Source: Raillietiella orientalis (Eukaryota). From it: 64,000 nt of DNA. This document shows, piece after piece, positions 3,834 to 47,646 of the stretch. The stretch is taken from assembly GCA_036172245.1 (NCBI GenBank), contig JAYWIR010000026.1, positions 620,001 through 684,000 on the forward strand, read 5' to 3'. The position numbers and the translations under genes are program-made. Under the pieces are notes generated by a model, which saw only the letters and a program-made list of their open reading frames with translations, searched no databases and was not told the DNA's origin. Position 1 is the first letter of the stretch. Each line of letters starts with the position of its first letter.

Positions 3834-6800
3834 TGAGGGCAATCGCGTCTCCTCGTCGTGTTGTTGGGACGTCTTGAAACTTCAACGGGCTCCAACACGA
3901 GGAGAAGAGGCGACTAGTGGCTGACACTCTGCGCGCCTTCTACTTGACGCTCCTGCAGGAGATTCACAGCATCTCCGAAGAGCAGGCTGCCGAAATCGAA
4001 CGGCGCGCGGGCGGAACGCTACTTTATAGGTGCGGCGTTGCACGTACGTGCGGCGTCGCTTTCCTCGTGCGAGGAACTTTGGCGGGAGCGGTGCGCAGCG
4101 TTCGTTTCGACACGGACGGCCGAGTGGGACAGCTTGTACTCAAGTGGTCCGACTCGATCGACCTTGTCGTAACCAACGTGTACGCGCCGAGCGGTGCTGG
4201 ACGATGGGCCGAAAGGATTGAGGTCTTCGGTACCCTTCAAGGCCAGTGGCTCACTCGATCTCACCCTACTGTGGCCCATCTCATTGCGGGGGACTTTAAC
4301 GTCCACCTGCTTTCCGAGAATATATCCCACAAAAGGGAAAAGTTGCTAGCGGAAGAGATGTGCGCGTCCGTGCACGCGTGCAACTTGTTCGCTAGCGACC
4401 CTGTTATGGCAGCAACGCCGGACCACGTATACCTTGATGAACACTTGCTCTGTCGAGTGGGTCGGAGAGGTCCCGTGCTGTCCGTGCTTTCAGACCACAA
4501 CAGGCTCGAGTTCGAGTTGCTCCCGCCAGGCAAGGGGCCTCCAAACTGTTTTTGGAGGATGCCGGCAGACTGGCTAAGCCACCCGGAGGCGGCTGAGCAT
4601 CTTCGCCAGTACCTCCTCGGCTGTGCCATAAGTGAGCTCGAGGACTGGGACGATCTGAAAAGATCGGTCCGCGAGTTCTGCTGCCGGTTTCCCTTGCACC
4701 AGCTTCCGCGCGACTTCGGAGAGGGCGTAGCCAACAGCAGAGATTTTCTGCAGGCCCGCTCCTTTTCCAGGCGCGCGGACGTTGGTCGATTATCCGAGTA
4801 CAAGGCCAAGGCCGAGCGCCAGGTCTGGCAGTCAGGGGCGACAGTTCTGCTCGACGACCAGGACCGCGAATGCTCGGCTCCAGCCGACGTGCGACGGATA
4901 GTCAGGCGCTATTACTCTTCTCTGTATGCAGAGGCACCGACGGAACGCAGCCTCTCCCGGCTGCTTCTGCCGATTGATGCACCTGTTGTAGACGAGGTGG
5001 ACCGCGCGCGTCTTGATGAGCCCTTCACGGCAGAGGAAATTTCCTCGGCCATCTCTTGGCTCCAAAGACGAAAAGCACCAGGCGAAGATGGGCTCCCTGC
5101 GGAATTCTTTTAGTGTTTTGCGGCGGAGCTCATCTTCCTGGTGCTCCAACTGTCGTCGCTGATGCGAGACTCGGGCGATGTCCCCGCCTCGTTTCGATCA
5201 GCGAAGGTGCGTCTACTGCCGAAAGGCGGAGATTTGCGCCAACTGAACAACTGGCGTCCGATCACATTAGTGAATTCAGTCGTCAAGTTGTTCTCGAAAC
5301 TTTGGGTGGCGCGGATGGGTAGGATCGCAAAATCCTTGGTAAGTCCGGAGCAGACGTACGCTGTTCCTGGGCGGTCCATGGACGCGAATCTCTTGTTCAT
5401 CCGCACATGGCTGCAATTGCAGCATCGTGTGGCGGTGGATCGTCGGGCGGAAGCGACGCCTTCGATCTCTCACCGACGGAGGCGCGGGACGCAAAGGGAG
5501 ACACCGGGAGCCTTGGCGGTTGCAGTCGATCTGCACAAAGCTTTCGATTGCGTGAACCAAAAGCGTCTTCTTGAGCTTTTGGAACGTCTGGGTCTTCCGG
5601 CATCCCTGTTGGCGTACTTGCGCTCCTGCTGGCGCCACGCGATTACATCCATTGTTTTCAGTGGCTGTCGCGTGTACGGCGTGCCGGTACGACGAGGAAT
5701 TAGGCAGGGTGACAGCTTAAGCCCGCTGCTTTTCAGCATCTATTTTGAATTGGTGCTGGAGGCTTACAGGCTGACGCTAGCCAACCTGCCGAGCTCCTGT
5801 CCAGGTACGCCTGCCGTGGCAGCCTATGCCGACGACCTGCTTCTCCTGTTGCCCATGTCCACCCCGACAGCGTCGCTTGAAGATTTCTTTGAGTTTATCC
5901 GTCGTGGTGCGGGCGTGAGCGTTAACAGGAGTAAGTGTATGGTTGTTCCGGTTGGTGCGACGTGGGAGGGGCAGTCCGACTGGATCGACCTGGGGATCCC
6001 CACGGGCAGGTACCTCAGGTACCTTGGCGTGCCGTTGGGCGACTTCTGCGTCTCAGAAGCGTGGTCGGACTGCCTTCGGAAGGCAGAGCGTGCACTTAGC
6101 CCGTTTTCAGGAGGCGAGTTCGTCTTGCCTGAACGGGCCTGCATCTGGAACACCTTCGTTGCCCCCCTCCTCCGCCCCCTGTTTTTTGTTTGTCCACCCC
6201 CCCAGGAAGTCAAAGTCTGGGCGCAGCGCCTTCTACGCAAAGCGTTGTGGGGCGCTGCAAGATCCCGTGTTAGACTTAAAGACTTGGTGGCGCCGCGTCA
6301 GGATGCAGGCTTGGGCATCCTCGACTTAAACAGCATCGAACTTCAGGTGCAGTTTCGCATGCTGCGGCTCTGTGCCAAGCTGTGGTGTACGCCGTGGTGC
6401 TTACCCGCACGCCTTATACTGAGGCGCTGCACGGGAAGCGAGGGACTGCTTTCGTTGCTACCCCACTTTCGGCACACCAGAATAGGGTTTGGCTTCCCGC
6501 TGAGGCAGCTGTTCTCACTGCTGGAAGCCCAAAGCTGGATCTCCTGCCGCCCCATGAACATTAATGCATGGCGGCAGGAATCTTTTTCATCGTGGGCAGC
6601 TTCCGAAGGAACGCGCCCGGAAGATCTTCGACGCCTGCGACTTCTCCTCAGTCATCAAATGGACGAAGTCATGCAGGACAAGAAGTTGTCGGATCGTCTG
6701 TCCGCCACACCACTCGCCGTAGCGCTGTCTGCCCTCAGGGCAAGCAACGACGGTTGCCTACCGGCGGAATGGGAGTTCTCCTGCAAAATAGCGGGAGTCA

Positions 6801-7405
6801 GTAAGCTCCTCGGCAGCTGGACGACAAAGGAGCTGGTGCAAGCCGCCACACCTCGGAATCGGGCGAATGGACTGCTTCGGTGGAGCGAACATTTAAGTGT
6901 GCCCCCCGGAGAGATAGTGGTTCCCCCCGTTTGTTTGGACAGCTCCGTGTTCCCCCTTAAGTGGAAACAAGATGTGCTCCTCTTTTTACATTGTGCATTT
7001 CACTGTAATAGGCAGCGAAGCATCGTTTCCGGGGGAGCTGCTTTGCCAAACTGTTTAAGGTGCGGAGAGATCGAGTCTTTTCCGCACCTTTTGCTGGACT
7101 GCGGTGACCTCCGGGAACTGTGGCGAAGGCTCACTTCGGCCATCATGCCACAAGGAGGCACTGCCATTGATGTGCTGCGGCGCTTCGTCAGCAGAAATGG
7201 ACTTTCGGTTGGCGCGATTGTCGCAACCATATGTTGCGTTCGCACCATCGTGAAGGCCCGCTACGCCCTGGAGTTGTCAACGCAGCGAAGGCAGGCTCAC
7301 CTGCTTGCAGCTCAATTCATGGAGAAGGCTTCAAGGTGGTCTCATCTTCGTGACAAGGTGAATGAGGACATCACCGGCATACATCGCCGGTTTACACACC
7401 TTTGA
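3833..7405 (+). pseudogene. ORF2 of element B (APE endonuclease, reverse transcriptase, C-terminal CCHC finger) with two in-frame stops
   Basis: One frame from ATG 3833 to TGA 7405 with stops only at 3875 and 5111. Motifs LQEIH, NVYAP, GDFN, SDH, DLHKAFD, GIRQGDSLSPLLF, YADD, YLGVP, CLRCGEIESFPHLLLDC. Confidence 0.96.
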
Positions 7406-14340: not shown

Positions 14341-15589
14341 TCAAAGGGTCCACTAGAATCGAGTTGAGTGGGCACGAATCGGTGCCTCATGCTGCAGAGC
14401 ATTTTCGAAATAGAATTCCTCTTCTAGCTAAGGTGGTAGATTGTCGGATCCACAGAGACGGCATCGATCTGGATTCCAAGGAAGGGGCTAGCTCGTTAGT
14501 GCAATACGTCTTTCGACGCATTGACCATGCGATTCGTGCTGGGAAGTGGTACGAGAAGAAAAGCAATGGCGGTGAACCATTTCGTATTGTAAGTGGATTG
14601 AATAATCAGTGTCCGTGTTCCTGAATATGGGATGCAGTTCTGGCAATAACCGGGAACAACGAAGTGGAACGTTCGGAAGGGCTCCTGTGTGCAGTCTTTG
14701 AGAGCCAAAGTTGAACTCATTTTTGACTTCCGGTTGATTAATAGCGCTGCAAAGCAGAAGTCGAAATTCCGATCCATTCAGCGGATCATGCACAAGAGGA
14801 AAATCGCCTGCGCGTTCATCAAGGACAGCGTGGAAGCTTTCTTCTCTTTTGCGGCATTTGGGAACACGAGAACGTGGAAGAGTGCGTCGTGATTCCTGTC
14901 CAACGAGTTCCAGTCCAACTCGGAAAGGGACAGACTGTTCTCTGGGATGCCAACTACAGTGATGCCAGAACCCACTGAACCCCATAACCTCACTCACCAA
15001 CGCAAACAGTTGAGGGATGGGTGAACGATAGATTTCACTGCGTCCGCGAGGAGAAATCCAAGTGCATGCGGCTCGAGCGAACAACATTGACGTCTTCGTT
15101 CTGATCGAGCAGCTCTCGAAATGCAGGCAACGGATATGGGAGCCTCCGGTTTGTATTTTGAATGGAGCGCAGGGAAAACCGGAATGTTTTGGGACGCTTC
15201 CTGCCTTGAACTCCGTCATGAATCCAAGCCTGAGGCGCTGACCGTTGTGTTCACCCTCATCGGCATCGGGCAAGCTCCTATTCTTTCAAGGCCCCTCCGA
15301 CAAAACGAAGGGCTGCTCACGAATCTTTCAAGGAATGTTCCCTGCAGAGCGCTTGTCGTTACGCTAGATGTTCAAAGATCTGTGCCAGAGGAGCCCTCAT
15401 TTGAACTGCTTGACTCTTACAGCAGAGATTTCGCTCGCAGACGATGGAAGTGGTGGGCGCTCACATAAGCAGGAAGTGCGCGTGTACACACTTTTCGAAT
15501 GCATGGGGGAGAGAGTTTTTAGTAAAGGATCACGAAAATTTGCTGGTTCTCACTGAAGGAAGAAAGGAGTTACGGACGGTAAAGTATTG

Positions 15590-16600
15590 TATATGTAAGG
15601 TGGTTCGTTCCCAAACGTTCACATGGGAGCCAGAGGGCAACACAGTCCACGAGCAAGGGTGGGAAGGATTCGTGTTCCCTGCACTTGCGACCGTCTCCGG
15701 GCTCGCCCTCCCCAGCGTCCAGTGGTGTCGACGCGCGTTGCAGGGGACACCCTAGCGCAACAGCAGAAGTGACGACTTCTGCCACTCCAGGGGGCGGGCG
15801 CTACCGCTCGTGAGCACAAAGGGTCACTCTGGGCCTGCAATGGTTGTCTTCGAAGGAAACCTTGGAAGGAACCTCTTCCTTGCTTCGATTTCCACGCACA
15901 CAGAGGTGTTCTCAGACGGTGTTTTGCTCCATCTCAGACCTGAGGCCTAAAAAGGGGGCCGTCGTCGCAGTTCTTTCATTCAGTTTCTTCAACAAGCAAC
16001 CGCTTAGGGAGATACCGTCATTGACGGTACCACTGAGCATTCTGCTATGTTCACAGTCTGCGTAAATGCTAAATTTACGTGCAAGCGGGAACATCCTTCC
16101 TTACCCCCTTCAAACACACAGTTTCTTTAGAATGGTATATATACATGTCTCGCACTGCAGTGTTTTTGCGCCGGTCTTTTAACCGGGCTCGTATCCAATT
16201 TCCTTCACGTGTTCACTTGCCAGGTGGCGTGCCTTTGACCTGATAGCGCGACCGTTGACCGCATTTGGCGCAGATATGGCCACTGTCGCGTAGAACGCTT
16301 CGTCCTGCTGCTGCAGGTGTGTTTACGTGCCTAACCATATTTTATGAGGCATTGGATGGCTCATCTCTTTCGCAGCACTAGACTGTTTCACTCTGATGTA
16401 GCTCTCTGCATTGACCGGCACTGCCCGTTCTTTACTAGATGCAAGGGTGGAGGGTGTAACGTTCGCCGAGTTTTAGTGACGCAAACAGTAGAAAAACTGC
16501 CTCCAGATACACTTTAGTAGTTTGCACCTTGTCAGTCTCAACCTAAAACTTACGCTTTCCAGTAATGCGGTTTGGGGCCATCGTAGTGGTCAGCCTTTGG
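15590..16600 (-). mobile_element. Decayed ORF2 3' region remnant
   Basis: Reverse strand GVPCNARRHHWTLG matches GLPCNARRHHWTWG at about 24790, and upstream parts resemble 24050-24700. Confidence 0.8.
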
Positions 16601-16749
16601 TGCAACGACCGAGCATCACTTTGGAGGACTCAGTCGTGATAAGGATCTCGAAACCAAGGTCGAGGAACCACAAGCTACAGAAGAATGCTTCAGAAAACGA
16701 AATCGAAAATGTCTTTTTTTCTTAAAGCCTGCATAACGAATCATGGCAA

Positions 16750-17620
16750 GGCTTATACATAGTGCACGAAATGAACAGTAACAATCCTCGAATATCTATG
16801 CAATCGTACACACAATATACCAAACCGCATGCACAACTCATGAATCCATTTCATCATTCACACCTCATTTCCAATTTGTGCGATTTGAGGCCACCGTTCG
16901 CATGTTGGTGAAATGATGAATAGTACAGTGAATTACGTTTACAGAGGCATACATTCGGGCTATCCACGTAGCACCAGTCAGATGCAGCATCTCGTGCTGA
17001 ATATGTGATTCCCATACACACAGAAACTCCGGTTCTTGAATTTACGAAACACAGGGGATCTGTTTTGCTGCCAAGTCGGCTGATTCCACATTCCTTCAGA
17101 ATCACCATAATTTTTCATATTCGCAAAATCTTCCTCCTATCCGGGATTTGTCGCAACAACATAATTATTCTACATATATAGTCTCCACCTATTTCAGAAT
17201 TCAACACATTCGACTCTTTTTGATCAGAAATAGTTTCCGTAAGTGGTTGCAAAGTTATCCTCACACCGTACATACTCAAACAGACTCGACATTCCAGTCA
17301 GATTCCATAATCCAAGCAACGTACTCATCGTGCGCTTATGCAAATTGGTATCATACACAAAGCAACCGACATAATAACCTTCACTGCCAACAAGCCTCAG
17401 CTCTTGACGAACAGCATAAGCACCCTCCATGAAACCGAAATCCCTAAGCCGAATACACGCACCAGAACGCAACACCTTCTTAATCCAGGAGGAACCACGT
17501 CCAAAATTGCCACGATCAATAACGCGCCTCCTCAAAGAATTACGCTTACAATGATTACCAGGAGAATGCAATGCACCACGTCTACGACGCTCTTTACGTA
17601 AACAAACATTCCTAAGATCA
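16750..17620 (-). pseudogene. cap: Endogenous CRESS DNA virus capsid gene remnant
   Basis: Arg-rich N-terminus (RKERRRRG..KRNSLRRR). SSLFEYVR (copy 2: SSMFEYVKLYGVRI) resembles the LFxxYRIxGVKI capsid motif; also DWCYVDSPNV. Divergent from the adjacent rep. Confidence 0.7.
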
Positions 17621-17770
17621 GCACAATGAGGTGCACGTGTTGCAACAGGCATCCTCACACCGCAACCTCTTGTATCCTAATGCATTGCAAAATGAAGGGA
17701 ACAAACAGAATACGAACCCCCTGACCTTCACATTCCTCCAATTTGACACCGACTACGCAAAAACCACATC

Positions 17771-17806
17771 GAAAGAGCAGAGGGTGACCCCGACCTCGGC
17801 ACTTTC
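17771..17806. promoter_or_regulatory. Putative rolling-circle replication origin stem-loop
   Basis: GAAAGAGCAGAGG-10 nt-CCTCGGCACTTTC (11 of 13 paired), lying between the cap and rep starts and 45 nt before the rep ATG. Confidence 0.65.
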
Positions 17807-17850
17807 AAAACCGTACCAAAATAAAAACACCCGCACCAAAGAGTTCCAAC

Positions 17851-18760
17851 ATGCCGTACCCAAAGTGCACGCGACGGTGCTTCACCTCAAACAACTGGAC
17901 AGCCGCAGAAGAAACGCAGGAAAGGTCACTTCGAAAAGGGAAGCACGCAATCCTCGGTGAAGAAGGAAGCTCAACAGCAACCCCATATCTCCAGGGATGC
18001 TTCCAAATAGCAATACCCTCCACGATACCTCAGCCAAAAGGCATCCAACGTTTCTCAAGAGCTCCCGTGCAAACCTCTAAACGAAATCCTCAACGCAAAA
18101 AGACCGCAATGCGAAAGGGGCCACCGAGAAACGAAAAACCTCCTATTATAAAAGATCAAGTACATCCATTACAAACACAAAGGAACACAATGCATTTCAG
18201 ATCTTCACATACAGAAAAGAGGGAAAAAACAGAAAAAGGGTTTTGCGAAAACGAATCACAAACATTCGATAATCAGAATGGCTTCGACATCGACAGCATT
18301 AGACTCGGACAAACCTACCCCGCGAGCAATCCAATAATCCTCAAAAGATAACAAGTACGGCGAAATACCCCACAAAGACCTCATGCAAAGAGAACCCGAC
18401 TACCGAGATACACATTGGTACACCGACTACCAAGGCAACTGGGGAAAAACCACAGAAGCTAAACATATCAAATGCTACGCACCGTACTTAACCAATCCCA
18501 AAAAGAGAGGCGGCGCCCACACGCGGAAAAGAGTGACCCTCAACATGCTGGACCTTACATGACCACAGCAACTACGGAATTATGGAAAGCCGGAAAAAGG
18601 CAACGCTGAGCTCCACGAAAATCCCAAGGTCACCTTAAATTATACGATCCACCTCGCTTCATCATCTTCCTCAACAAGGAATCCAACCACGAGAAAATCT
18701 CAACCGACCGCTGCATCATCCCTTATTCCACTGAAGACCTATTGGAACCAATGCCACCGA
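17851..18760 (+). pseudogene. rep: Endogenous CRESS DNA virus Rep remnant (HUH endonuclease plus SF3 helicase)
   Basis: Motif I CFTSNN, motif II ILGEE...TPYLQG, Walker A HWYTDYQGNWGKT, and motif C region YDPPRFIIFLNKE...KISTDR. Frameshifted. Confidence 0.9.
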
Positions 18761-19559
18761 AGAAAGGCATTTCCCACGCTAAAGCGCTAAGCATTAATGC
18801 GTTCCACCAAAACCATGCTGCCGAATTCTTCCCTTCTTTGTCCATGAAAATCTCGAACCAATTTTCCATTCAGTCTTTCTAAACAAGATGCCGGTGAGGA
18901 TGCCCCTTGCTCCTGAAGCAATGTTCTGTTGCACCTCCTGACTTTCAGGTAGCACTACTGTTTCAACATGCCCCTGCCATCCACACCATCCAGTTCATTC
19001 TTCATTTTTGCAACACGGAAAAAAGGACAGATTCCAGTCGCTCACAGCACACATAGGATGCACACGCCTGAACTGTTTTGTGCTTTGACAAGGCATATGC
19101 ATGCTCAAGACAACACGAAAAAATGCAGGTGGTCATCAACATAGGACTGCAGCAAGTGAGTTTATCATCTGAACAGCAGTTCTCCTGCAACACCATGCAG
19201 TTCACTATTAGGGAGACTTTCCGACGAGGAGATTGTGAGCACCAAGCATACTGATGTTTCCAGTCCCAATGACAAGACACCATGCTGTTTTCTAAAGTTT
19301 CCTAAGAAGCTGACACACTTGAATTCTTGTCAAAACACTTTTTCTCTGTATGTTTCATCCTGCATACGAAGCGTTTTATGCGGATTAAAAATGTAAATGC
19401 ATCAATAAAAAACTTCGTACGCCAAGATTGTTCGAAAGAATTCATTCATGTTCGAGCATTCAGTGAACACAGCTTTTCATTGAGCAACACTGCAGTGCTA
19501 CACACCCGAGCTGCATAAATTACCATGAGCAAATCCTGATCAAAATAAGATGAAGACCA

Positions 19560-20480
19560 ATTATAAAGATACGGACCAAAGCCCTCCTCAGAACTGCCCT
19601 GTGAAGCACAGCGAGGTCACGAGTCCGATTGAAAGACTTGTGCGCTAAACTCAGGGACGGTGTTTTGGGCCTACTGACGATGGAGCGCATACAACAGATC
19701 AACTTTAGGAAGCTAGCCCTTGCGGCTAGCTTATGGTTGACGTCATGGTGCGAAACCGCACGGCTACTCGCCAGAAGAGCGATGGGTTGCAACGATTTCA
19801 CGTCGATTCTCGTGGCATACGAGCGCAGCCTCAACCACATCTGTGGCTTTCATCTGCGCCAGATGTTCGCCATGATGAGGGAGAATTCCTGGATCCCCTG
19901 CCGCCCCGCGAACTGCACTGCCTGGCTTCAGGAGTCAGTTTACGCGTGGGCCAAGATCGATGGCTCGAGCGAGGCGGAGTACAACTGTCTCTGTCGAGGA
20001 CCCAACGCTCGACAGCCCCTGCAGGAGATAATCAACAACCCACGGAAATTGCTGTGGGCTTCTTTGACCCCCCTTGCCTCCGTGCTGTCCTGCCTTCAGA
20101 ACATCGGGAACGGCAACGAACGAGCATTGTGGAAAGTGTCCTGCCTCATACGAGGCAGGACAAATCCATTGAAGGCGTGGACGACTCAGGAGTTAACGGA
20201 CGCTGCAACCGCGAGCGTCCCGTCTAAAGGAATTGTGCGCTGGGGCGAGCTACTCGGCATACCTCCGGAGGAGTTGGACCCCAGCGTGCTGGGATTCTTG
20301 CACCCTGTCCCTGGAGTGGCAGCAGACAGCCCTGCTAGTGTTCCATTGGGGACTCCTTTGCAGAGCACACCTCTTCCATTGGACTTCAGGGACTGTGGAT
20401 GCCCATTGAGCAGGGTGCGGGAAACGAGACCTTCCTCCACCTCATCCTGCTCTGCACGCCCGTACAAATGGAGGGTCGAA
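19560..20480 (+). mobile_element. ORF2 post-RT fragment
   Basis: ORF 19629..20516 has RDGVLGLL, SWIPCRP, WLQESV and AWTTQEL, homologous to B ORF2. Confidence 0.9.
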
Positions 20481-20549
20481 ATATCATTCCCTACATGGTG
20501 GACCGTTCCATTCTGATCCACATAACGGAAATGGAAAAATCCGCGGCCA

Positions 20550-23500
20550 TTCATTGCACGTGGCGCAAGCACAACGCTTTCGGGATAACAGCTTCGTCGC
20601 CGCACGCGTGACCCTTCGCGAGGGGTGCGAACTTATCCACAAACTCCAGCTCCGCACCGACTTTCTCGATGTGTGGTATGTGGGGAAGCCGAAATTTTGC
20701 GCCATATGTAAGAAGTTCGGGCATCTCAAAAAGAGATGCCCGGACGCATTATGCCCCACGTGCGGCGCTAAGGACCACACCAAAGTGGTGTGCCCGATGA
20801 ACGTCGCACCACTGCCGTCGGAATCTTCCCAGAATATTAAGAAGAAAGCGGCTAAAATAAATCGAAATATAATCGCGGAAAGACCGCCCACCAAAAAAGT
20901 CGTGCAGCAAGCAGCGGACTCATTAAAAGAGAATCCGAAACAGACTGTCGACGAGGAAGGCTGGCAGCTGGTCTCCCGCAAAATTAAATTTATTAAAAAA
21001 ACCGCGCCCGCCCCTGCGACGATCTCAGGCCAAAGCCGCGCCTCGGGAGGTCATCAACGAATGCCGCGTGAGAATTCGGCGCGTCCCGGAGATCGTCAAC
21101 CGCTCCGCTACGAAATCGATATGCAATGACGTCACTCCCGCTGAACCCGCTGTCGGACATGCGCCGACGCCGCGACCAAGTCGCGAATCGAGCGTAAGCA
21201 GCGAAGACGGAGCTTTCAGGAAAGCGACGGAAGAACTGGTGGCCATGTTCCAGCAGCCACCCAAGGCCGAGGAAAAGGCCTTGTGCTCCACGGCTAATTC
21301 ATAAAAACCAGAGACTAGCGAGTCCGAAGCCGAAGCCGGCAACGCACCTTCCGTCGATCTTCGAAAGTGCCGGGCAGGTCGTAAGGAAGGCAACCTGCGA
21401 AGCACCGCTCCTTCTCAGGCGGAGGAGGGAATGGTCTCGGCAGACGAGGAGGAGAAGTCCGCGAGGTCTCGCGACTCCTCGCCGGAAGCGGTCTTGCCTA
21501 AGCAAGATACACCGCCCTTGATCGACGCACAGCCTCCATGCGAGGCTCAAGCCGTCGAAATTAATGCACTTCTCCCGCCTCCTGAACAGGAAGCGGCAAT
21601 CACCCCATCATTATAAATACACCGTCGCGTGGACTCTCCTCTCGCCGGCGCTTGCGCGTAATCAGTTGGAACGTCAACGGGCTGCGCGAAGTCGGAAAGA
21701 GGAGAGCAATAGCCGCCATCTTGCGAGATTTCGATCTGGCACTTCTGCAGAAGACGCACGTGCTCCATGCGGAAGAGGCCCAGGAAATTGAAACGATCGC
21801 AGGAGGGCGGCTCACATGGCGAAACGGACAACACCACACCCGCGGTGTGGCGTTTTTTATCAAGCCAGCCGTCGATCAGGCGCTGCGCGACGTGCAGTTC
21901 GATAGGGAAGGTCAAATCGGACAGCTTGTGATCAAGTGGTCCGACGCGATCGACCTCGTGATTACCAACTTGTACGCGCCAGACGATAGCCACAGCTCCG
22001 CCGAACGCACTGCGTTCTTCGAAGGTCTGCGGGAGATTGGCTGGCCGAAACGGACATAAGAAGGGCACACCTGATTTCCGGGGACTTTAACGTCCGCCTG
22101 CTGGCACGTGCGCCCGGATCACGAGCACAACTGGTCAACGAAATGTGCGCAGCAATGCAAGCGCGCAACTTGTTGGCCAGTGACGATGGGATGGAGACAA
22201 GGATAGACCACGTGTTCCTCCACCATCACCTGTGCACGCGGGTGGAAAATCGAGGAACATTGCTTTCCGCGTTGTCCGACCGCCCTCGACTTGTGCTCGA
22301 GATGCATCCGAGAGAAAGAGGCCCACCCTCTCAAACGTGACGTTTGCCAGGGGACTGGTTGCGCCTCCCAAGAGCAGCTGACCACCTACGCGAATTCCTG
22401 CGAGGATTCCATCTTGAGACGCTCGCGGACTGGGACATAATGAAGAGTTCAGTCCGCGAGTTCTGCGACCAGTTCCCCTTAAACCGTCTTCCCTCAGGTT
22501 TCGGAGAAGGAATCAGGAATGAAGGCGCGTTCCTACACGCCCGTACTCACTCCAGGAATTCCTACGTCCGAAGCCTGGCGGAATATAAAGCTCGGGCTGA
22601 GAGACAGGCCTGGCAATCCGGCTCTGCGAGCTTACTGGACGCTCAAGGCCATGAGTGCTCAGCCCCAGCACAGGTGAGCCGCATCTAGCGGAATTTCCAC
22701 TCCGCTTTATACGCGCGGCGAACCACAGAGCGTGCCTTTGCGTAGCGATTGATGCCGCAGGACGCCCCCGCGATGAAGCAGGAGGATCGAGAACAAATAC
22801 AGGAGCCTTTCTCGATGACGGAGATCATCTCTGCCATCGGAAAACTCAAAAAACGGAAGGTGCCAGGGGAAGACGGCCTGCCCGCGGAGTTTTACCAACT
22901 CTTCGCGGCGGAGCTGGCCCCCCTGGTGCACAAACTATGCACGCTGATCCGAGAACAAGGGGAAGTTCCCATGTCGTTCCGGTCAGCCAAAGTACGTCTT
23001 CTTCCTAAACAAGGAGACACCCGCAACGTAGGCAACTGGCGTCCCATCACCATAGTGAATGCGGACGCAAATTTGCTTGCCAAACTTTGGGCTGAGCGAC
23101 TGGGACGGGTGGCGGAATCCGTTGTGAGTCCGGAGCAGACGTACGCTGTTCCAGGACGATCCATGGAGGCCAACCTGTTCCTCCACAGCACATGGTGGCA
23201 GTTGCTACAAAGCGAAGTCCAGGGAGGTCAAGAGAATGCTGGATTCTCCTCTGACCAGGGAGGGGACGCCCTTCATGGAAGAGCCGCGCCAGGAGCCCTT
23301 GCGGTCGCAGTCGATCTGCGTAAAGCATTCGACTGCGTCGACCAGAAACTCCTCCTGGAGCTCCTGGAACGTTTGGGATTCCCGGCAGTCTTCCGGGCTT
23401 ACCTACGCTCCTGCTGGCGCTTCGCGTTGATCAACATTTCCTTCAGCGGCCGGCACGTCTACGGCATACCGGTGCGCAACGGAATAAGGCAAGGCAATAG

Positions 23501-25437
23501 CATGAGTCCCCTGCTCCTTAGCAGCTACTTCGAGTTGGTGCTGAGAGCGTAAAGGGCAACTTTGTTAACCTTGCCGAGGTCGTCTCCCGGCACGTCTGCC
23601 ATGTCGGCCTATGCCGACGAACTTCTGTTCCTGCTTCCCGGGTCCCATCGGCATCGGCGATCGAGGAGTTCTTCGACCTGCAAAGTCGGGGAACCGGGCT
23701 TGAGGTGAACAGGGCAAAGTCGTCCATCAGGCCAATCGGTGCGGCGTGGGCAGGGCAGCCGGACTGGGTCCGTTTGGGGATCCCCACGGTACGGTACTTC
23801 AAGTACCTCGGTGTACCGATGGGTGATTATCTCCCTTCGGATGCGTGGTCCAGCTGCCTTCAAAAGGTAGAGACGGCGATCGGCCCGTTCCAAGGCCGCA
23901 GGTTTTTCCTACCGGAACGGGCCGCGGTGGGAAACGCATTCGCGGCGCCCCTCCTCCGTTCCCTGCTTTTTGTTTGTCCCCCCACCACAGAAACTAAAAA
24001 GCGGACGAAGGACCTCCTAAGGATTGCCCTGTGGGGTAATGGGAGGGCCCGAGTCCGGCTTGAGGACTTGAGCGCTCCGCGTCGGGACGGCGGTCTCGGC
24101 CTCCTGACGCTACAGCGGCTGGAGCTCCAGCTCCAGTTTCGGTTACTCGCCCTAGTGGCGGAATATTGGAGTAGCAGTTGGTGCGAGCCCGCACGTCTCC
24201 TCGTCGAGCAGGCTACAGGCGAGGTGGGACTGTCATCCTTCCTTGCTCTCCGTCGTCGCCGCCAAGTTGTCACTGCGGGTTGCAGCTACGGAGCGTGGCT
24301 GACCTGATAAGGAAGAACGCAGGAAGGCTCTGCTGTCGCACCGTTAACGGACCTGCATGGCTGCAGGAAACGGTTCAGACGTGGGCAAGGAGCAACCAGC
24401 AACGCACCCAAGAAATGCAGACACAATTCTTCCCCCGTAATGACCGCCTGACGCTCCGGGAGGTCCTGGAGAACCCCCAAAAACCAGCGTGAGCAAGAAA
24501 AACTCCCCTCGCTGCAATGCTGTTTCCGCTCGCGGAACATTCAAACGGCAACACTGCTGCGAAATGGGATGTTTACGTAAAAATCTCCGGTACGGAGAGA
24601 AAGATCGGGGAATGGAAAACGGGAATTCTCTGCGATACCGCGGCCCGGACTACCACCCCTATTGGGCTTTTGCGCTGGGGCGAGCTGCTATATGTTCCGC
24701 GGGAACAATTAAAGTGGCCCCAGGTGCTGATGAACACCTCCACTTTCCCCTTAAAATGGCAGGAGTCGGCGCTATTGTTGCTGCATTGGGGACTCCCCTG
24801 CAACGCCCGCCGACACCATTGGACCTGGGGAGCGGAGAGTCCTAATTGTGCGAGGTGTGGAGAACAGGAATCCCTCACTCACGTCCTTTTGGATTGTGTG
24901 GCTCTTCGGCCCCTTTGGAACCGTTTTGCCGCGGCAATCGGTAACCCCTGTGGCAACCCCAGAGACGCAATTAGATCCCTCTTCCTTTGCGATGCCCTCC
25001 GGCCCTCGGCCTCGTTAGCAGCTCTGTGCTGCTTTCGCGGGATCGTCGCTGCATGGAGCAAGGCAACGGGAGGACCTCGCGATAAGGGTGCCGTCCAGTG
25101 CGCAGCCGAATTTATGCGGACGGCGACAGGATGGACCCATCTGGATTCAAATATCCAAAAACAGCTTGCCGGCATCCTGCAAAGGATGTAACGGCCCCAC
25201 AGCAGACTGTGATCCCTTCCCGTGCCCCCCAGATCTTGATTTTATATATTTCCTTTTTTTGTTTTATTTTTTGTTTTGTCCTTGGCCCCTCTGCTGTCGT
25301 GGTGGACCGTACCGGAATACGAACCGGTGACCCGGCAGGCTTAATTTTGTATACCAGTGCGTGGCCGGACCACCTGGTCAGCCACCAACGTTTGTTTTAT
25401 TCCAAAGAATAAACGCCCCGGCGCAACTGGGTGAAAA
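20550..25437 (+). mobile_element. Element D: 5'-truncated copy (partial ORF1 with knuckles, decayed full ORF2, 3' UTR)
   Basis: CAICKKFGHLKKRC and CPTCGAKDHTKVVC; SWNVNGL, NLYAP, DLRKAFD, GIRQGNSMSP, YLGVP, CARCGEQESLTHVLLDC. Terminal motif at 25408-25432. Confidence 0.93.
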
Positions 25438-25439
25438 AC

Positions 25440-27930
25440 GAGCGAGAGCGGACGGGTTTTTGCTTCGCTCTTGAACGTTTGTGGTTTTATTTTTTTTCTT
25501 TTTTTTCTTGGTGTGCCAGTGCATTCGGTGGTGGCTAGGCAGCAATGCCTGGGACCACCACCAATCTTAAGGAGGGGGCGACGTCTATGTCTCCCCCTGA
25601 ATCAATGGATGTGGGAGCAACCGCCCCCACAGAAGCGACACCCTTGTTAGGGAGAAGCTGGAGTTCCGTGGCTGCGGCGCCAACGCAAGCGGCTGCGGCT
25701 GAGTTAAAAGCCTACCTGGAGGAGGGGTACAATCCCCCTCTACTCTACAAGGTAGGCAACCTTTACTCCTTTGAGAGTGCACGCGCTTTCTCGAAAGCGA
25801 TGCACTCCCTCAAAGTACTACAGGAGGAGTTCTTGGCGATGACCATCAGGAGTGGTGGACAGTACGTTGAGGTGATTTGCAAAGAAGCAAGTCTTGCCCA
25901 GCGTCTGCTCCGTACACCTGTTCCTTTGGGGAATCGCCGGCTCCTCCCCATCACGGAGGATAGATCTATCGTGATCCACCTCCTCGGAATCACCTTCCGG
26001 ATGGCCGAAGAGGCTGCCCGAAATGAATTAATTAAATTTGGAACCGTCCACGCGTTGTGAAAAAGCCGACTCCGTTTTGGGAGTACGATCTGCTGAATTG
26101 CGGTATGGCTTCCGCGCGCATCACGGTCCGCGAGGGTTGCTCCCTACCTAACAAGCTGCAGGTCAACGGCGAACCCGTTGACATCTGGTATGTCGGTAAG
26201 CCGCATTTCTGCGGGCATTGCAGCACTTCAGGTCACCTGAAAAAAAGGTGCCCCCACTTGCAGTGCAAGCCATGCAAGCAACCCGGGCACACTTCCAGTG
26301 TGCCCTCAAAATGAAGTCCGCGTCGCGTTTGCACGGAATGCGAAGAAGCGCGCGGCGAAAAAAAGAAGAGTTCAGGCAGCCCGAGAGAGAGCCGCCGCTC
26401 GAAAAACAACTATCGTGCCCCAGGTGAAGGTCAGCTCCGAGATCTTGGAAAACTCGGACAAGGTAGAGAACGGCCAGGAACCTGAATGGCAGGTAGTAAA
26501 ATCCAAGAGGCAGAAAAGCTTCAAGGAACCAAAAAAAAATGTCGCGAAACGCAGCGAGAATTTGCCGCGTCGCGAAAAGATCAAACGCTGCTCTGTCGTC
26601 ATCAAGCGCATTCCTGCGGTCGAACAGAGCGCCAAAACCGAACTCGTCGCTGCCGACTCAACCGTCCGGCAATGTAAACACGAAGGCTATCGATCTTGCG
26701 GTGGCGTCCGTCTTCGCACGGATGCTCGATGACGTCGCCTTTGAGCGAGCGGCGGAGCTCGCTGCGTCCCTACGTCCCCTTAAGGTCGTGAAAAAGGCCT
26801 TAAGACGTCGGAACCCCAAGAAGTCGGAGGATACGGACTGTGCCGCGGAGGGAGAAAGCATAGCCAGCGGCATCGCGGTCCCCCCCAGAAGCCCAGTCAA
26901 ACTTTCGCGGCGGAGCTTACTCCCCTGGTACATTAGCTCACCCTTGCTGATTCGCGAGACAGGTGACGTTCCCACTTCGTTTCGTACAGCAAAGGTGCGG
27001 TTCCTCCCTAATGGAGGAGGCCTGAGGAGCATTAGCAACTGGCGTCCCGTCACAATAGTGAATGTGGACGCCAAGTTGGTAGCTAAGGTTTGGGCAGAGC
27101 GGCTGGGACGGGTTGCCAACGCTTTCATCAGTCTGGAGCAGACATATGCTGTTCCTGGGCGGAGCATGGAGGCGAACCTGTTCCACGCTTCCACATGGTT
27201 AGAGCTCCAACAAGAAGCTTATTGAACAACCGGAATTCCGGTGCGTACGTCGGTGAGACGGCATGGACGGGTGGGGAAGGGAGCCCTTGCGGTCGCTGTC
27301 GACTTGTGTAAAGCATTCGACAGCGTCGACCAGAATCTCCTGCTGGAGCTTCTGGAACGCTTGGGCTTCCCGGCCTCTTTGTTGGCCTACTTGCGCACCA
27401 GCTGGACAGATGCGCTCATTAACGTCTTTTTCAGCGGCCATACCGTGTACCTGAAGTCCCTGGGCGACCCGTTGGTGAATTCTGCCTTTCAGAAGCCTGG
27501 TCAGGTCGTCTCCAAAAGTTAGAACTGGCAATTGGCCCGTTTCTGTAAGGGAACTTCCTTCTGCCGGAACAGGTACCGGTGTGGAACGCGTTCGCAGCCC
27601 CAAACCTCCGCCCCCTACTTTTTGTTTGCCCCGTCCACGTAGTAATAAAGAGGACGAAGGACCTCCTCCGCATCGCCCTTTGGCGCAAGGGCAGGTTCCT
27701 AGTCCCGTTGAAGGTCTTGTGCGCTACGCGTCGGGACCAGGTTTCGGCGAAGGATTCAGAAATGACGGCGCGTACCTACACTCCCGTCCTCACTCCAAGA
27801 ATTCCGACGTCCGACGCCTGGCGGAATAGAAAGCTTGGGCTGCGAGACAGACCTGGCAGTCCGGGTCGACCAACTTTCTGGACTTCCAGGACCAAGAGCG
27901 CTCAGCCGCAATACAGGCTCTTCAACCGGG
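25440..27930 (+). mobile_element. Internally deleted and rearranged copy: 5' UTR and ORF1 fused at about 26900 to RT pieces
   Basis: ATG 25545, CGHCSTSGHLKKRC, then a jump to NWRPVTIVNVDAK, DLCKAFD and WNAFAAP. Confidence 0.88.
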
Positions 27931-33289: not shown

Positions 33290-33830
33290 TGTAAATACAA
33301 AGAACAAAGAATGTTAAACAAAAGAGGCATTTTGGGGAAAACGAACCGCAACTCAAGGAAAAACATAAAAACATTCATTACCGACAGTACCAGACTGGGA
33401 TAATGAAACTCTACAAACTCTATGATACTAAAGACTCGAATTATGGCAAGGAAACCTACAAATACAGAGACAAACTACAGAAGCATTCATTTGTTCACGG
33501 ACTACCAAGGAAACTCCAGAAAAAAGACTATAGCAAACCACATCTATATCAAGTTCGACGCACTGTACTTGACAAACTGCAAACAAAGCGAAGCAACATA
33601 CATGCAGAATGGAGAGATCATTACAACATAGCTCACCAAAGATAATCAAGACCACATCAACTACGGGGTCATCGTGAGCTTAAAAAATGGCATACACTGC
33701 TCTATCAAATACCAAGTTTACGAGAACTTAAACGATCCATCTCACGTTATCATAATTGATCAAACATTGATCCCAACTATAAGAAAATGTCAAACGATCG
33801 CAGGATCATCGATTCCATCAATGACAAAAA
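33290..33830 (+). pseudogene. rep: Endogenous CRESS Rep fragment (SF3 helicase half)
   Basis: RSIHLFTDYQGNSRK, ALYLTNCK...NGEI, NYGVIVSLKNG.HCSIKY, DPSHVII and KMSNDRR. Confidence 0.88.
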
Positions 33831-34309
33831 CAAAACATTAACTATTTAATTGATGCCAACTCACACACAATGATATCATTTAAAAATGTGGATCTCTGAT
33901 TCCTTTGAATACAAAATATCTTCTGAATACTCTGAATGGAGAAAAATTTGCTTTCAGTTTATTTTTCTGTATATTCACAGTACTTTTTGGTCCATGCTTC
34001 TGCCACATGAAAGCCGATCACATGCTGATCGTAGGGAAGCATGTGATCAGATGACCCAAAAGAGCATACACGTTAGTCTCCGTCTACTTTTCAGTTTCCA
34101 GCCAAGAACAATAAGGACGATCAGGCTTTACAGGATTACTCTCTCCAGTAACAGCCTTCTCGTTCTGAATACAAGGTCTCAGATGCAGATACAGCTCTGT
34201 TTTTTAACTTCTAAAACATAGGTGACCTGTTCTGTTGCCAAGGTGCTTCTAAATACGTCCAGAATCTCCATTCTTAATATTCGTAAAATCTTCGTCTCTT
34301 GGATTTGTC

Positions 34310-35410
34310 ATAACATAATTCTTATAATTATACTCTCCAGCTATTTGAAAATTTAATACATGAGACTCATTCTGATTAGTTAGATCAGTGGTCATTGCCG
34401 GCAATACCACTACTCTCATACAGCCCATGGACCAGCAAGTCATTTTAAACTTCAAACACCTGTACAGAAAAACTATGTTGCAAAAATCCTTTGAAATTAC
34501 CAGACACAGAACTGACTCTTAAAGAATTAAGGAAGGAACATGGCAGCATCTTTTTTGCTTGAGGATCATAGATAAGGCGTGGAAAGAAGTTTCCCTTGAA
34601 ACAATGATTTGTGCTTGGAAAAATCTCTGGCCTGATTGCTTTTCAGTCAAAATAGGTTGTGAAGAAGAATCATAAATGAAATTGTCTCTGAGTAAAGCTA
34701 TGGGATTACAGGTGAATAATGAGGATGTAGAAGAGTTAATAGATATCGCACTACCGAACTCAGCATATAACTTCAATGTCTTCAAGATCAAAAACAAAAA
34801 GTGGAAGAAATTTTGTTATAAGAAAATGGCGTCAAGGGATGGATACATTTCTAATTCTGATCTTAAAAAATTGTTCTCGGTTTGGGCCAGAACACAAGCT
34901 ATTGTGGAAAAATGCCATCCTCAAACAGTGATTACCAGGTGCATCAACTTATTTGAAGACAATGTTAGGTCACTTCAAAAACATCCAAAAAAGTCAACGC
35001 CAAAGAACATTAGAAAATTCTCCTCCGGAGAATAACGAAAACGTAAATTAACATCCTCCATTCCAGCTAAGAAACGAAAAGGAGACGCATAACAATAGGA
35101 GCATCACATATTTCCATCTTTATGACTTTTATGATAAAAAACTAATTTTCATTTATTTTATTTGTCATAATTAAAATTAATAACTAATAAGAACGTTTAA
35201 TTTCTCGAGGTTTGGGAACGTTCTATGTTATGAGCATTAAAATTTTAAAAAAAGATGAAATAAAAAACCCATTGAAATTTTTTGGACATGGGAACGAATT
35301 ATTTCCCTCTTTATTTTTTCTTATGTAAAATATTGATTCAGACTTCGAGCAAGTCAAAGTACGAACAGGTTTCTGTAACGAATTGAATACTCAACACAAA
35401 GCACCATGTA
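34310..35410 (+). mobile_element. Tigger/pogo-like DNA transposon remnant (DDE_1 transposase C-terminal half and right end)
   Basis: NTTTLIQPMDQQVILNFKHLY and IIDKAWKEVSLETMICAWKNLWPDC. Ends in a Tigger-like terminus ...GCACCATG followed by TA. Confidence 0.85.
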
Positions 35411-37189
35411 AATCAAACAAACTCTTTGATGATGCTCCTTCCTTCGACATTGCCAATGATGTGATAATGTCTCCAAAATTAGTGAATACGCTTGAAGTAC
35501 ACTGCAACATCGGAAAATCCTCGCTCTCCAAAGAGGCACAAAACTTAAGTATTTAAGATTTGCTTTGGGAAAGTCGAAACAACTGGAACAGAACTCCTCG
35601 CCGTTCAGACAATACCAACAGATCTCAGGAACTAAAAATACGGCTGGTCAAAGAGATCACTTCAACCTGTTTCAGACACGAAGGAGTGCAGCTACCATTC
35701 GAGCCGCAGTGATATGGGGATGAGCATTTCCTCGATTCACACCTCATGCTTCACCTCGTTAATCCTTTTGCAAGCCTATCCTCACCCGTGTATTTTGGCC
35801 TCAACCACCTGAACAAGAATTCCAAATATCTCTGACGCCCAAAGTCTAACCAGTTCCCTTCCTGGTGATGTGTACATATATGTGTGTATTAGTGCTCTAT
35901 ATTTAGTTAAGCTATTTCGTGGTAGTTGTGATAGGTGATTTCGTAAGTGCTAGCGTCACGAGCGCGCAGTAATTCATCAAAACGAGTAGACCATCTAGTT
36001 CTCGTCCGTATCCAGCCTTCTCACCACCTGCAAGCCGCACACGACAAAGCCACAGACGTGCATTTAGGAACCAGCCACCCAGAGCTACACCTCCACCACC
36101 AAATCCCCCATTAATCATGGATCCAGTAATTGGATGGCGAAACCCAATGACAATCTCAGTCAGATTCAGACCCACTTCAGCAGTGGGTCTGTCCTACAGC
36201 ATATAATGGGTATAAATTTGGATCTTGGTCCAGTAACTAATGACCGGAGAGATGACAACTTATTCGCATATCTATATTTGGCTGCCCGAGGTGAGAGCAC
36301 TTTGCAGGAACCCATAAATGCTTCAGCATCATGTTGGAATGCCAATTTTGGACATAATTTTCGAGATTTCCGAAGGAAGGCTCCTCGCAACTTCCATTTC
36401 AAGTTCCAGCGCTCAAAATGAGCGCAGAAACTCCTGCTACATTGCAAAACACGATATCCAATCTGCAAAACCATTACTCCTACATTAGTACCATCTTGTC
36501 AGTAACCAGATGCAGCGTCTTTTATCAAATCCGCAGAAAACACTTTTCGTTAAGGAAAAAACAACAACACGCAGAAGCTTCAACTGCAAACAAAGGCTAT
36601 CATCCTAACACCCAAGATTCTCCTGGAGTACATACTCCGATGAGTACGCCATCCTCCTATTCAAGCATACCATCCAACGCTCCCGTTTCTGATGAATTCC
36701 ATGGACTGTTCGCTCCCATCTCACGTAAACAAAACATCACGCCAACATGCGCACCACCAATCACCATTAGAGGATTGTAAACTTTCAGTACACATGACTA
36801 TTGCAGAAATCAATTTACGTAGGACAAGAAATGGAGGCGACAGTCAAGCGAAAAAGTAGCCTACATCAAGCTCCCACGATGCCAAACACCGAAAATACAC
36901 GAAAGACCAGGCATCAGGATGAACAAACCAAGTCTACTGAAAATACAGGAATTCCTTCATACGCAGCACAGGCATATTACAAAGTGCAGACCATAATTGT
37001 CAAAGCAGCCTTACAGTAAGTACTCAATTGAACTCTCATTTCCTGAAAGTACATTGATTCACCTTCAGGAAACAACTCATGGAAGCAAAATGAAAACCAC
37101 GCACCACACAAGAGGCAAGCTCCATTAAAAAACACACAAAAACATCTGCGATACCGACGTAGGAAAATTCTTTTCACCGAACGAAGCAG

Positions 37190-38000
37190 ATCATGGAAAA
37201 AAGATCGCAGTGCTTCCCATTCTACTCGCCCACGATAATCAATTGGGATGCAAACGATGTGGGGAAGCTCATACCCTTGAAAACAGTCCCTGCACTACAA
37301 AACCAGCAACACCCAAAGGCAGCGAACGAACCTTCTATGAATACCTACCACGGCCGCCAAACATCACGCTCAAACGACACGTGAAAGCATTACAGCAAAC
37401 AAACAAATGCTAACAATATCCCCTAAACACATTAAAAGACACGCTCTCTGATTCGGTGTTTTGTGAAACCACAATGAAAAACACTGAGCCTGCAGAATTG
37501 CCTATACCAACCACACAACTTGAAACTGAAGTTCTCAAACAAAGGACGAAATCACAATCATTCTTCTCGATGCGTGTGCTTCGGTCAACTCACGACTACC
37601 ACGAAAACATTGGCAACTCAACCTATTCAACATTCTCAAGCACCAACCTCACCCACGCAACATTGATTGGTGGGCACACCGAAGGCAAGTCTGGAAAAAC
37701 AACTACAGCCAAACACCTTTTCCTCAACGCTGACGCCATTTACATGACAAATTGTAAAAAAGCAGACGCTGCCCACCTATACAACGGTGAAAACATTGTA
37801 ATCATAGTCTCCACAAGAGACAATAAGGACGCAGTCGAATATGGACTCAACGAAACCATTAAAAATGGAATCATGATGGATCAGACCACTACACTTACTA
37901 GGCATGTACCTGATGCAACTTACCACGAGGAATTCACCTTATGTCGTATACGTGCAATCAAAGCAAACCAACATCCTTCCAGCATCATTCAAAACAGCAG
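37190..38000 (+). pseudogene. rep: Endogenous CRESS Rep remnant
   Basis: EGKSGKTTTAKHLFLNADAIYMTNCKKADAAHLYNGENIVII..TRDNKDAVEYGLNETIKNG in ORF 37456..38064. The N-terminal part is very decayed. Confidence 0.85.
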
Positions 38001-40861: not shown

Positions 40862-41754
40862 GTCAATTGGAGATACACTCAACGGATTATTATTGTCTGC
40901 TCTGGGCATTGAGCCCGCAGTGTAGCACACACGCCATCGTATGTGTCAGTCAAGACAGATGCATTAAAGACGCCAATCTCTTTCATATTTTGAATGCTTA
41001 ATCCATGGCTACCATTCCCCCAACAGAAACAGGAGGTGATTCAGAGGTGTGGCTCTGCTTGTGGACAGTGCACTGTTCACATGGCACATTCGGAATGAGC
41101 ATCCGTCCACAGACGCTACAATCGATTCCAAGTTGGCACCGTATGCCATTAGCACTGTGCTGAACCGTGGGTGCTGCAGCGTGAACGCGCTCCGCCGGAT
41201 GGACTGAACATCCGCCTTGACAGAATGTCCCTGAGATTCTCCCAAAGCGGATGTTCAATAAGGGACAGTTGCTTAATTTTCGTAATCTCTTAATCACAGT
41301 TTGCAAAATGCATGTACATTTGATTCGCCACGGGTTCACCTATTGAGTCCTCATCTCAACTTGGGTCTGCAGGAATGAAACGAAGCAGTGGCCTCACTTG
41401 GAAAATACCGACCATCTCTGCCTGGATTGCACGGAAAACACCTTGGAATTTTGTCCTCATGGAGGATCCTTTCCTGTTTCTGTACCGTTTGCTGACTATT
41501 TTGCCGGTATAGCAGATTTCACTGCAGAATTCATGGAGGAAGGTAGTAGTTCAGTAAGCATGGGTAATCGAAAAGAATGCTATGCAATTACCGAGTTTTT
41601 GCAATGCATCTATAATGGTTACCTGTTAGTCATGCCTCATTTATCAAGAGAATTGTATAAAAAAGTATCTATCCTAAAGAAAAATCTGAAAAAAGTAGAG
41701 CAAACTTGTTATACTATTTCATATATGGCTCGGAACTCCCCAGCTGCATTTTAG
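40862..41754 (+). pseudogene. Translin-family (TRAX-like) gene remnant, probably intron-containing
   Basis: DYFAGIADFTAEFM...EFLQCIYNGY...KKVSILKKNLKKVEQTCYTI matches the TRAX C-terminus. GLQE*NEAV at 41364 matches GLQEYVEAV, and a possible upstream exon reads EIHSTDYYCLLWALSP. Confidence 0.7.
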
Positions 41755-46700: not shown

Positions 46701-46829
46701 CTCTGGAGCACTCGGGCGTGATCAGCATCTCGAAACCAAGGTCCACAGACCACATCCTACTAAAGGATGCTTCACAATACGAAATCCGAAATGCCTTTTT
46801 TTTCTAAAGCCTGCGTGACGAAGTCATGG

Positions 46830-47590: not shown

Positions 47591-47610
47591 AGAACAGCAA
47601 AAACCACTTG

Positions 47611-47646
47611 GATAGTGCGCAGGGTGACCCTGACCTCGGCACTTTC
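47611..47646. promoter_or_regulatory. Putative rolling-circle origin stem-loop, copy 2
   Basis: GATAGTGCGCAGG-GTGACCCTGA-CCTCGGCACTTTC (10 of 13 paired). Confidence 0.6.

Follow-up and report, generated by a model that had tools for sequence, protein, structure and literature searches.

Dead remains of a probable CRESS-type replicon of ~2.1 kb, integrated and duplicated in a repeat-rich stretch of the Raillietiella orientalis genome

Introduction

Most circular Rep-encoding single-stranded DNA (CRESS) viruses are known from metagenomes alone and have no known host. Among insertions of circular single-stranded DNA viruses in cellular genomes, those that bear a capsid gene are rare: Table 1 of Liu et al. 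(2011, PMC3198968) counts 302 Rep-like and 3 capsid-like sequences over 35 organisms. Whole-genome CRESS insertions with both genes, together with a tandemly repeated element, were described in Entamoeba and Giardia by Kinsella et al. (2020, PMC7493932), and in the same account CRESS viruses with related Reps can have capsid genes without detectable similarity. In this study, we analyzed a stretch of 64,000 nucleotides from Raillietiella orientalis (assembly GCA_036172245.1, contig JAYWIR010000026.1, positions 620,001 to 684,000 of the forward strand), hereafter called the window, with position 1 as its first letter. An original prediction, made from the letters alone, had placed a whole endogenous CRESS virus genome at 16750-18760, present twice, and had stressed the same rarity of capsid-bearing insertions that the published counts bear out. 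Our analysis indicates that the region is, with good probability, the dead remains of a CRESS-type replicon of ~2.1 kb carrying rep and an opposed, most likely capsid gene, which was integrated, duplicated as copies A and B, and decayed.

Results

A full-length but dead rep gene

The Rep-bearing sequences of the window were named copy A (~16750-18882), copy B (~46834-49193), fragment C (33407-34410) and fragment D (37530-38061), and the coordinates of their parts are given in Table 1. When the 216-residue frame of fragment D was run exhaustively against 1.84 billion proteins with HMMER, 130 were returned at an expect value (E) <=1e-3, the best at 8e-15, and residues 89-157 of this frame align to positions ~190-260 of proteins of ~300 residues. 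When 30 of the 130 matches were scanned with Pfam, Viral_Rep was found in 27 and RNA_helicase in 20, and neither was found in P0001, P0016 and P0026. The nearest relatives sit on contigs of 1.3-3.9 kb. The best match, P0001, is a protein of 354 residues with two tandem Rep helicase domains and no nuclease domain; it is labelled as part of a bacterial metagenome bin, and its 3.9 kb contig is possibly another concatemeric or integrated form.

From the 130 matches, 101 proteins of 270-470 residues were chosen for a Rep profile (P0001 was excluded for its tandem double helicase), which was run without filters on the 2315 six-frame pieces (>=15 residues) of the window. Matches at E<1 fell exclusively on the plus strand, at the four loci A, B, C and D. 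Copy A gave four collinear matches covering profile positions 52-365 with three frame changes (frames starting at 17788, 18338, 18537 and 18610), and the score of fragment D (E 3.5e-26) is circular, since D seeded the profile. In tblastn, the copy A pieces showed weaker matches at 33440-33592 and 37681-37776. The Rep homology is significant in both the HMMER search and the 101-protein profile, which upholds the predicted endogenous fossil of a Cressdnaviricota-type replicon.

Direct reading of the plus-strand frames recovered the predicted rep remnant of copy A at 17851-18879, with its motif I, the Walker A motif GNWGKT and the helicase end PPRFIIFLN...KISTDR. Motif I is CFTSNN in copy A and CFTSNR in copy B, and Walker A is GNWGKT in copies A and B and GKSGKT in D, and has degenerated in C. 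Motif C and the S.DR arginine finger can be aligned in A, B and C, the KNG region is recognisable, and Walker B gave no alignment in copy A. Of the HUH motifs I and II that had been claimed, the first is intact in copy A; motif II aligns but reads YLQ instead of HLQ, the first histidine being changed to tyrosine, and the same region is replaced in copy B. The tyrosine of motif III (YxxK) is also not preserved in copy A. These altered nuclease motifs fit a dead member of the family, not an active enzyme. As judged from its sequence, the rep gene is certainly real, full length in copy A, and dead.

In the PDB, the N-terminal frame of copy A reached the Rep nuclease chain 7kii_A at E 0.48, in an alignment that includes motifs I and II. 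No match was obtained in a word-indexed search of 5.8 billion proteins with the copy B helicase frame and fragment D, in pattern scans of IMG/VR with fragment D and the copy A nuclease frame, or in a PDB search with the copy B and D helicase frames. The best identity to database proteins is 38% over 55 amino acids for the copy A nuclease domain and 50-52% over 65-66 amino acids for the D helicase, and no close exogenous relative was found, in keeping with the unclassified lineage proposed earlier.

One integration, later duplicated

When 15001-20500 was compared with the window by blastn, the segment 15880-19565 was found again at 45942-49901, as four collinear pieces with 79.6-89.9% identity. 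Each of the two virus-flank junctions is crossed by a single alignment (15880-17163 vs 45942-47228, and 18122-19565 vs 48430-49901), which supports the descent of copies A and B from one integration that was later duplicated, as had been predicted. The flanks are the same, as also claimed, over 0.87 kb to the left and 0.68 kb to the right, but the sequences differ beyond 15884/19562 and 45945/49901. Identity between A and B is 84.7% in the left flank, 83.4% on the capsid side, 82.4% in the intergenic region and rep N-terminus, 91.6% in the C-terminal part of rep and 96.6% in the right flank, corresponding to a divergence of 3-18% by segment. Over the whole block (15885-19562 vs 45946-49901), the left 2.1 kb are ~83-85% identical and the right 1.4 kb 92-97%, a step that suggests later gene conversion or a mosaic duplication history.

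No Pfam match was found in the left flank (15885-16749), whose outer edge at 15884 is the end of a long interspersed nuclear element (LINE) copy recurring at 57371-60594. The 3.2 kb LINE-bearing segment 12652-15884 is 97.7% identical to 57371-60594 and stops exactly at the left edge of the A block; its duplication is much younger than that of A and B. On the right, a 5'-truncated LINE reverse-transcriptase sequence begins at ~19566.

The second copy lies at ~46834-49190, close to where it had been placed, but it is not a whole genome, as had been claimed. Copy B has no counterpart of A 17621-17754 (134 bp), a segment comprising the beginning of the minus-strand frame together with most of the intergenic sequence, and the 140 bp of A 17982-18121 are replaced by ~600 bases at 47827-48429; neither this insert nor the 50-52 kb tract has relatives in the window. 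The count of two also falls short, with two further Rep fragments at 33407-33846 and 37530-38061. The minus-strand pieces of copy A matched copy B in tblastn at E 5e-31 and 7e-25. Stops and frame changes are abundant on both strands in copies A and B, and no copy is functional now.

Contaminating viral DNA or an assembly chimera would be expected as a single intact genome. The viral genes here are instead broken by many stops and frame changes, and the four diverged copies are interrupted by foreign DNA and continuous with LINE sequences on both sides, so we give this explanation hardly any credence. The position of the unit between LINE copies, its many stops and frame changes and its presence in diverged copies support a genuine chromosomal insertion.

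A Rep-bearing mobile element that multiplied within the genome, like the truffle geminivirus-like transposons in print (PMC3198968), could replace infection and segmental duplication as the source of the copies. Four Rep-bearing copies within 33 kb in a single orientation would suit it, as would the outer flanks of the 3.7 kb A/B block, which differ between sites. The block, however, lacks terminal inverted repeats (best local score 7-7.5), and a target duplication is not visible; its left 0.87 kb does not share the composition of the unit and resembles a carried-along flank; the copies are old and unequal (67% to 97% identity); and C, a fragment with permuted order, does not reproduce the block. 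We consider a mobile element distinctly improbable, and retain a single integration followed by duplication as the origin of A and B.

Strand composition and a permuted fragment link the two genes

In copy A, the plus strand is G-poor over both genes regardless of the coding strand (GC skew -0.27, -0.33 and -0.24). For the left flank the value is -0.04, even though this flank was duplicated along with the unit, and the G-poor bias stops at the left junction. The cumulative GC skew falls steadily from ~16800 to ~19000 and is flat outside. Since the bias spans both genes and ends at the left junction, it is best taken as a property of the inserted molecule and argues for the joint arrival of both genes. 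Such a strand-wide bias delimits the viral segment to ~100 bases without a homology search. A strand bias blind to the coding strand could stem from the packaged strand and not from the host, for example if cytosines on the complementary strand had been deaminated.

Fragment C matches copy A in both genes, in rep (33488-33810 vs 18413-18720, 67% DNA identity) and in the minus-strand gene (34214-34379 vs 17047-17227, 73.5% in blastn, tblastx E 8.8e-9). Both matches have the same orientation and the gene order is permuted, the second gene lying downstream of rep in C and upstream in A. C and A are offset by 15075-15090 in rep and by 17152-17167 in the other gene, and the difference of 2062-2092 bases between these offsets agrees with the size of unit A (~2.1-2.2 kb, from homology and from composition). 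Given the permuted order and the unit-length offset, we infer, with good support, that the replicon was circular or concatemeric and of ~2.1 kb. The ambisense circular layout of ~2.1 kb in the original prediction gains independent support from this fragment. A pogo/Tigger-type transposase remnant at 34376-35032 on the plus strand (Pfam DDE_1, E 3e-6; DDE_1 fragment 34376-34519) abuts and truncates fragment C.

Fragment D is embedded in a G-poor tract of ~5 kb (35400-40300), over which the cumulative GC skew drops by ~400. Beyond the Rep piece at 37530-38061, no Pfam matches in other frames and no internal repeats were found in this tract. The Rep-bearing copies A, B, C and D all have one orientation.

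The opposed gene is likely a capsid gene

The significance of open runs was assessed with 2000 dinucleotide shuffles per test. In copy A, the 150-codon open run of the minus-strand gene (17676-17227), on a strand prone to stops, was equalled by 1 of 2000 shuffles, and the plus-strand run at the same place by 224 of 2000. The frame from the ATG at 17652 has 14 basic residues (12 Arg and 2 Lys) among its first 50 and 3 among its last 42, and a basic N-terminus is typical of CRESS capsid proteins. The gene is linked to rep in A, B and C. Eighty related viral contigs of 2029-4226 bases were retrieved using an alignment of 12 near Reps; the largest other open reading frame (ORF) was on the opposite strand in 39 of them and a basic N-terminus was seen in 39, in a crude census with circles doubled and overlapping frames unfiltered. 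Given the open run, the basic N-terminus, the linkage to rep and the shared G-poor composition, we regard it as likely, by inference, that it was a capsid gene. What stands of the predicted minus-strand cap is an opposed open frame upstream of rep at 17676-17227, with more minus-strand pieces to ~16750; capsid similarity was found by neither sequence nor profile methods.

Several results count against a joint CRESS unit with a capsid gene. For the minus-strand gene, Pfam and NCBIfam gave no match, none of 270 candidates was scored in the word-indexed search of 5.8 billion proteins (frame read through with X at stops), and the ESM Atlas (all clusters and named clusters) gave no usable match. 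When the 80 related viral contigs, with 166 non-Rep ORFs, were compared by tblastx and phmmer, the best E was 0.12-0.28, and hhalign against 63 ORF clusters reached a top probability of 1.7%. The minus-strand open runs of B and C are marginal (86 of 2000 shuffles for the 102 codons of B, 66 of 2000 for C), and in both of them the plus-strand runs are comparably unusual (30 and 55 of 2000). Mismatches between A and C by codon position (16/23/16 on the capsid side, 34/36/25 in rep) gave no clear signal for either gene, in a test with no power. The AlphaFold model of the frame was unusable (mean predicted local distance difference test score, pLDDT, 36.9). The best PDB match of the frame was ribosomal protein uL2, not a capsid, at E 0.032 with a second chain at 0.28, collinear from the N-terminus. 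On the side of rep, Pfam gave no match with any of the Rep pieces of the window, and their recognition depends on the profile made in this analysis from the matches of fragment D. As regards circularity, the permuted order in C would equally be given by a concatemer or by tandem duplication of the unit, and the single orientation of the four copies also fits local duplication of one old array, not repeated infection. Neither terminal redundancy nor similarity between the ends of the unit was found, and the last 300 bases of copy A on the capsid side have no similarity to C, so that the unit ends are placed to within ~100-150 bases.

The origin adds to these points. A stem-loop had been predicted between the two genes, and it was not confirmed: a search with a 6-nt seed returned no inverted repeat from the intergenic region of A or of B, and the intergenic fold has a z-score of -1.38, with 18 of 200 shuffles folding as well. 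The nonanucleotide NANTATTAC does not occur in the window (0 matches, with 2.3 expected by chance), and no form with <=1 mismatch and a stem was found in the intergenic or end regions. The origin may have been erased by decay, or by the 134-base loss in B.

These negatives bear directly on an ordinary rep-only insertion, in which rep alone is viral and the adjoining minus-strand sequence is unrelated host or repeat DNA, such as a decayed processed pseudogene. It would agree with the failure of every method to find capsid similarity, with the collinear match to eukaryotic uL2, with a short A-run at the 3' end of the minus-strand unit (16712-16722, T8 on the plus strand), and with rep-only insertions being the rule in the published surveys (PMC3198968; Dennis et al. 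2019, PMC6372831). The uL2 lead, however, failed all profile tests, and the minus-strand sequence accompanies rep in the permuted fragment C at the unit-length offset and has the strand composition of rep, unlike the duplicated left flank. We judge a rep-only insertion unlikely and keep the second gene as part of the viral unit.

Two candidates from these searches were rejected. For a uL2 pseudogene, Pfam and NCBIfam were silent at E<=10, an unfiltered profile built from 74 archaeal uL2 proteins and run on the 2315 pieces left the frame unlisted at E<=50, further in-frame reading gave no second match, and a spurious Cas9 match to a fragment C piece was equally good (E 0.03). In the metagenome scan, locus L081 showed a 21-residue pattern match outside any long frame and without Rep, and was taken as chance.

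Setting of the locus

The window is a repeat-rich eukaryotic chromosomal stretch, with long GC-rich frames bearing LINE domains, and Rfam and tRNA scans were empty. The observed/expected CpG ratio is 0.41-0.51 at 18880-19560, 38062-39500 and 50000-52000 and ~1.0 in the LINEs and in viral unit A, so that CpG depletion is patchy within the window. On the plus strand at 41347-41751, an open frame of 135 residues resembles the Translin family in its C-terminal half (E 3e-15). In the PDB this frame is closest to fly and human TRAX (~E 1e-9), from which it is roughly equidistant, and it may represent an exon of the host or a processed copy. The frame at 26500-27222 on the plus strand, GC-rich and amid LINE sequences, gave a weak Pfam match to CcFV1_CP, a capsid family of filamentous dsRNA virus (E 1.1e-4, 22.1 bits, below the family cut-off), which is probably due to chance.

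Table 1 Coordinates of the viral remnants, their common flanks and other features of the window
Feature	Position	Strand	Description
Copy A minus-strand gene remnant	16750-17676	-	At least 4 frame pieces: 17227-17676, 17118-17297, 16981-17136, 16857-17114
Copy A intergenic region	17677-17850		Between the divergent genes; expected origin site; most of it (to 17754) deleted in B
Copy A rep pseudogene	17851-18882	+	HUH nuclease and superfamily-3 helicase; full length, four frames
Copy A rep piece 1	17788-18348	+	Profile positions 52-196, E 2.6e-8
Copy A rep piece 2	18338-18559	+	Profile positions 232-281, E 3.5e-8
Copy A rep piece 3	18537-18635	+	Profile positions 295-317, E 0.038
Copy A rep piece 4	18610-18879	+	Profile positions 319-365, E 6.6e-5
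Left flank common to A and B	15885-16749		84.7% to 45946-46833; GC skew -0.04; non-viral composition
Right flank common to A and B	18883-19562		96.6% to 49191-49895; first ~150 bases G-poor like the unit
Copy B minus-strand gene remnant	46834-47560	-	83.4% to A; more broken than A, 5' end truncated
Copy B rep N-terminus	47634-47826	+	Motif I CFTSNR; stops before motif II; 83-85% to A 17757-17986
Copy B replacement	47827-48429		~600 unrelated G-rich bases in place of A 17982-18121 (140 bp, rep motifs II-III); GC skew +0.34
Copy B rep central part and helicase	48430-49193	+	91.6% to A; profile E 4.9e-13
Copy B rep pieces	47634-47810, 48600-49190, 48803-48946	+	Rep profile E 0.18 (positions 52-95), E 4.9e-13 (two stretches), E 0.0046
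Fragment C rep helicase half	33407-33846	+	One stop, one frame change; Rep profile
Fragment C rep pieces	33407-33628, 33632-33838, 33760-33846	+	Rep profile E 1.1e-10, 4.1e-10, 1.1e-3; collinear, positions 234-359
Fragment C 3' intergenic region and part of minus-strand gene	33850-34410	-	Downstream of rep; cut off at ~34380-34410
Fragment D rep helicase piece	37530-38061	+	Walker A GKSGKT through KNG motif; most divergent copy
LINE endonuclease	3878-5110		Domain match
LINE reverse transcriptase	5114-7402, 22746-23549, 56331-57056		Domain matches
zf-RVT	24493-25188		Domain match

Discussion

In the history that we propose, the rep product would have been an HUH nuclease that nicked the origin, fused to a superfamily-3 helicase, and the second gene would most likely have encoded a capsid protein with an arginine-rich DNA-binding N-terminus. 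A double-stranded replicative form or a rolling-circle concatemer presumably joined into germline chromosomal DNA, and opening of the circle between the 3' ends of both genes would give the cap(-)-intergenic-rep(+) order of copy A. The insert, with 0.87 kb and 0.68 kb of flank, would then have been copied once to form B, and both copies would have decayed neutrally. Fragment C may be another break-out of the concatemer or a separate insertion opened elsewhere, and fragment D may be an older or more distant relative.

A bolder joint reading, doubtful though not far-fetched, is that an unsampled CRESS lineage with a relative-less structural protein was taken up repeatedly at this locus (the A/B ancestor, C and D within 33 kb and in one orientation). 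The locus would then be a trap for single-stranded DNA replicons, comparable to small-RNA-producing clusters, and the G-poor strand would reflect cytosine deamination of the packaged strand before integration.

A fossil of approximately whole genome length would link the organism bearing it to a Rep lineage and perhaps also to an orphan capsid gene. The 3-18% divergence of the duplicated copies offers a minimum age for the insertion, and the permuted fragment C provides internal evidence of a circular or concatemeric ancestor. The value of the locus is limited in that the capsid assignment draws on indirect evidence, all copies are dead, and whole-genome CRESS insertions were described before (PMC7493932).

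Compared with the ambisense Circoviridae of ~2 kb, the locus likewise has two divergent genes on a unit of ~2.1 kb, whereas the nonanucleotide, stem-loop and capsid similarity of that family were not found in this unit. Porcine circovirus Rep structures match the nuclease domain of the nearest relatives (7lar, 9.5e-27) over profile positions 11-164, and not the helicase. The nuclease domain of these relatives also matches the solved Rep nuclease chains 2hwt and 6h8o at ~1e-20, which we take to be from nanoviruses. The helicase motifs may resemble those of the nanovirus/alphasatellite Rep group, as had been claimed. Nanovirus genomes are split over several single-gene circles of ~1 kb, with all genes in the same sense. 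Unlike the organisation of Nanoviridae and Alphasatellitidae, two opposed genes here lie on one unit of ~2.1 kb.

With the endogenous circovirus-like and nanovirus-like Reps described in PMC3198968 and PMC6372831, the locus shares a decayed Viral_Rep-type Rep that lies amid transposons and seems to fall outside the established families. Those insertions are, in the same sources, overwhelmingly rep-only, whereas the unit here has approximately full genome length, with a second gene and an intergenic region. A further parallel is with the insertions of Entamoeba and Giardia (Naryaviridae, Nenyaviridae and Vilyaviridae; PMC7493932). In that case the capsid gene was identified directly, from exogenous viruses sharing 73-84% nucleotide identity with the insertions, whereas here the closest Rep stretches are 38-52% identical and the second gene has no match. 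This lack of a match recalls the capsid genes without similarity that the same paper describes among related Reps. As in those insertions, a Rep and a capsid-side gene appear to have been integrated together, and the tandem element described there fits the reading of fragment C as part of a concatemer.

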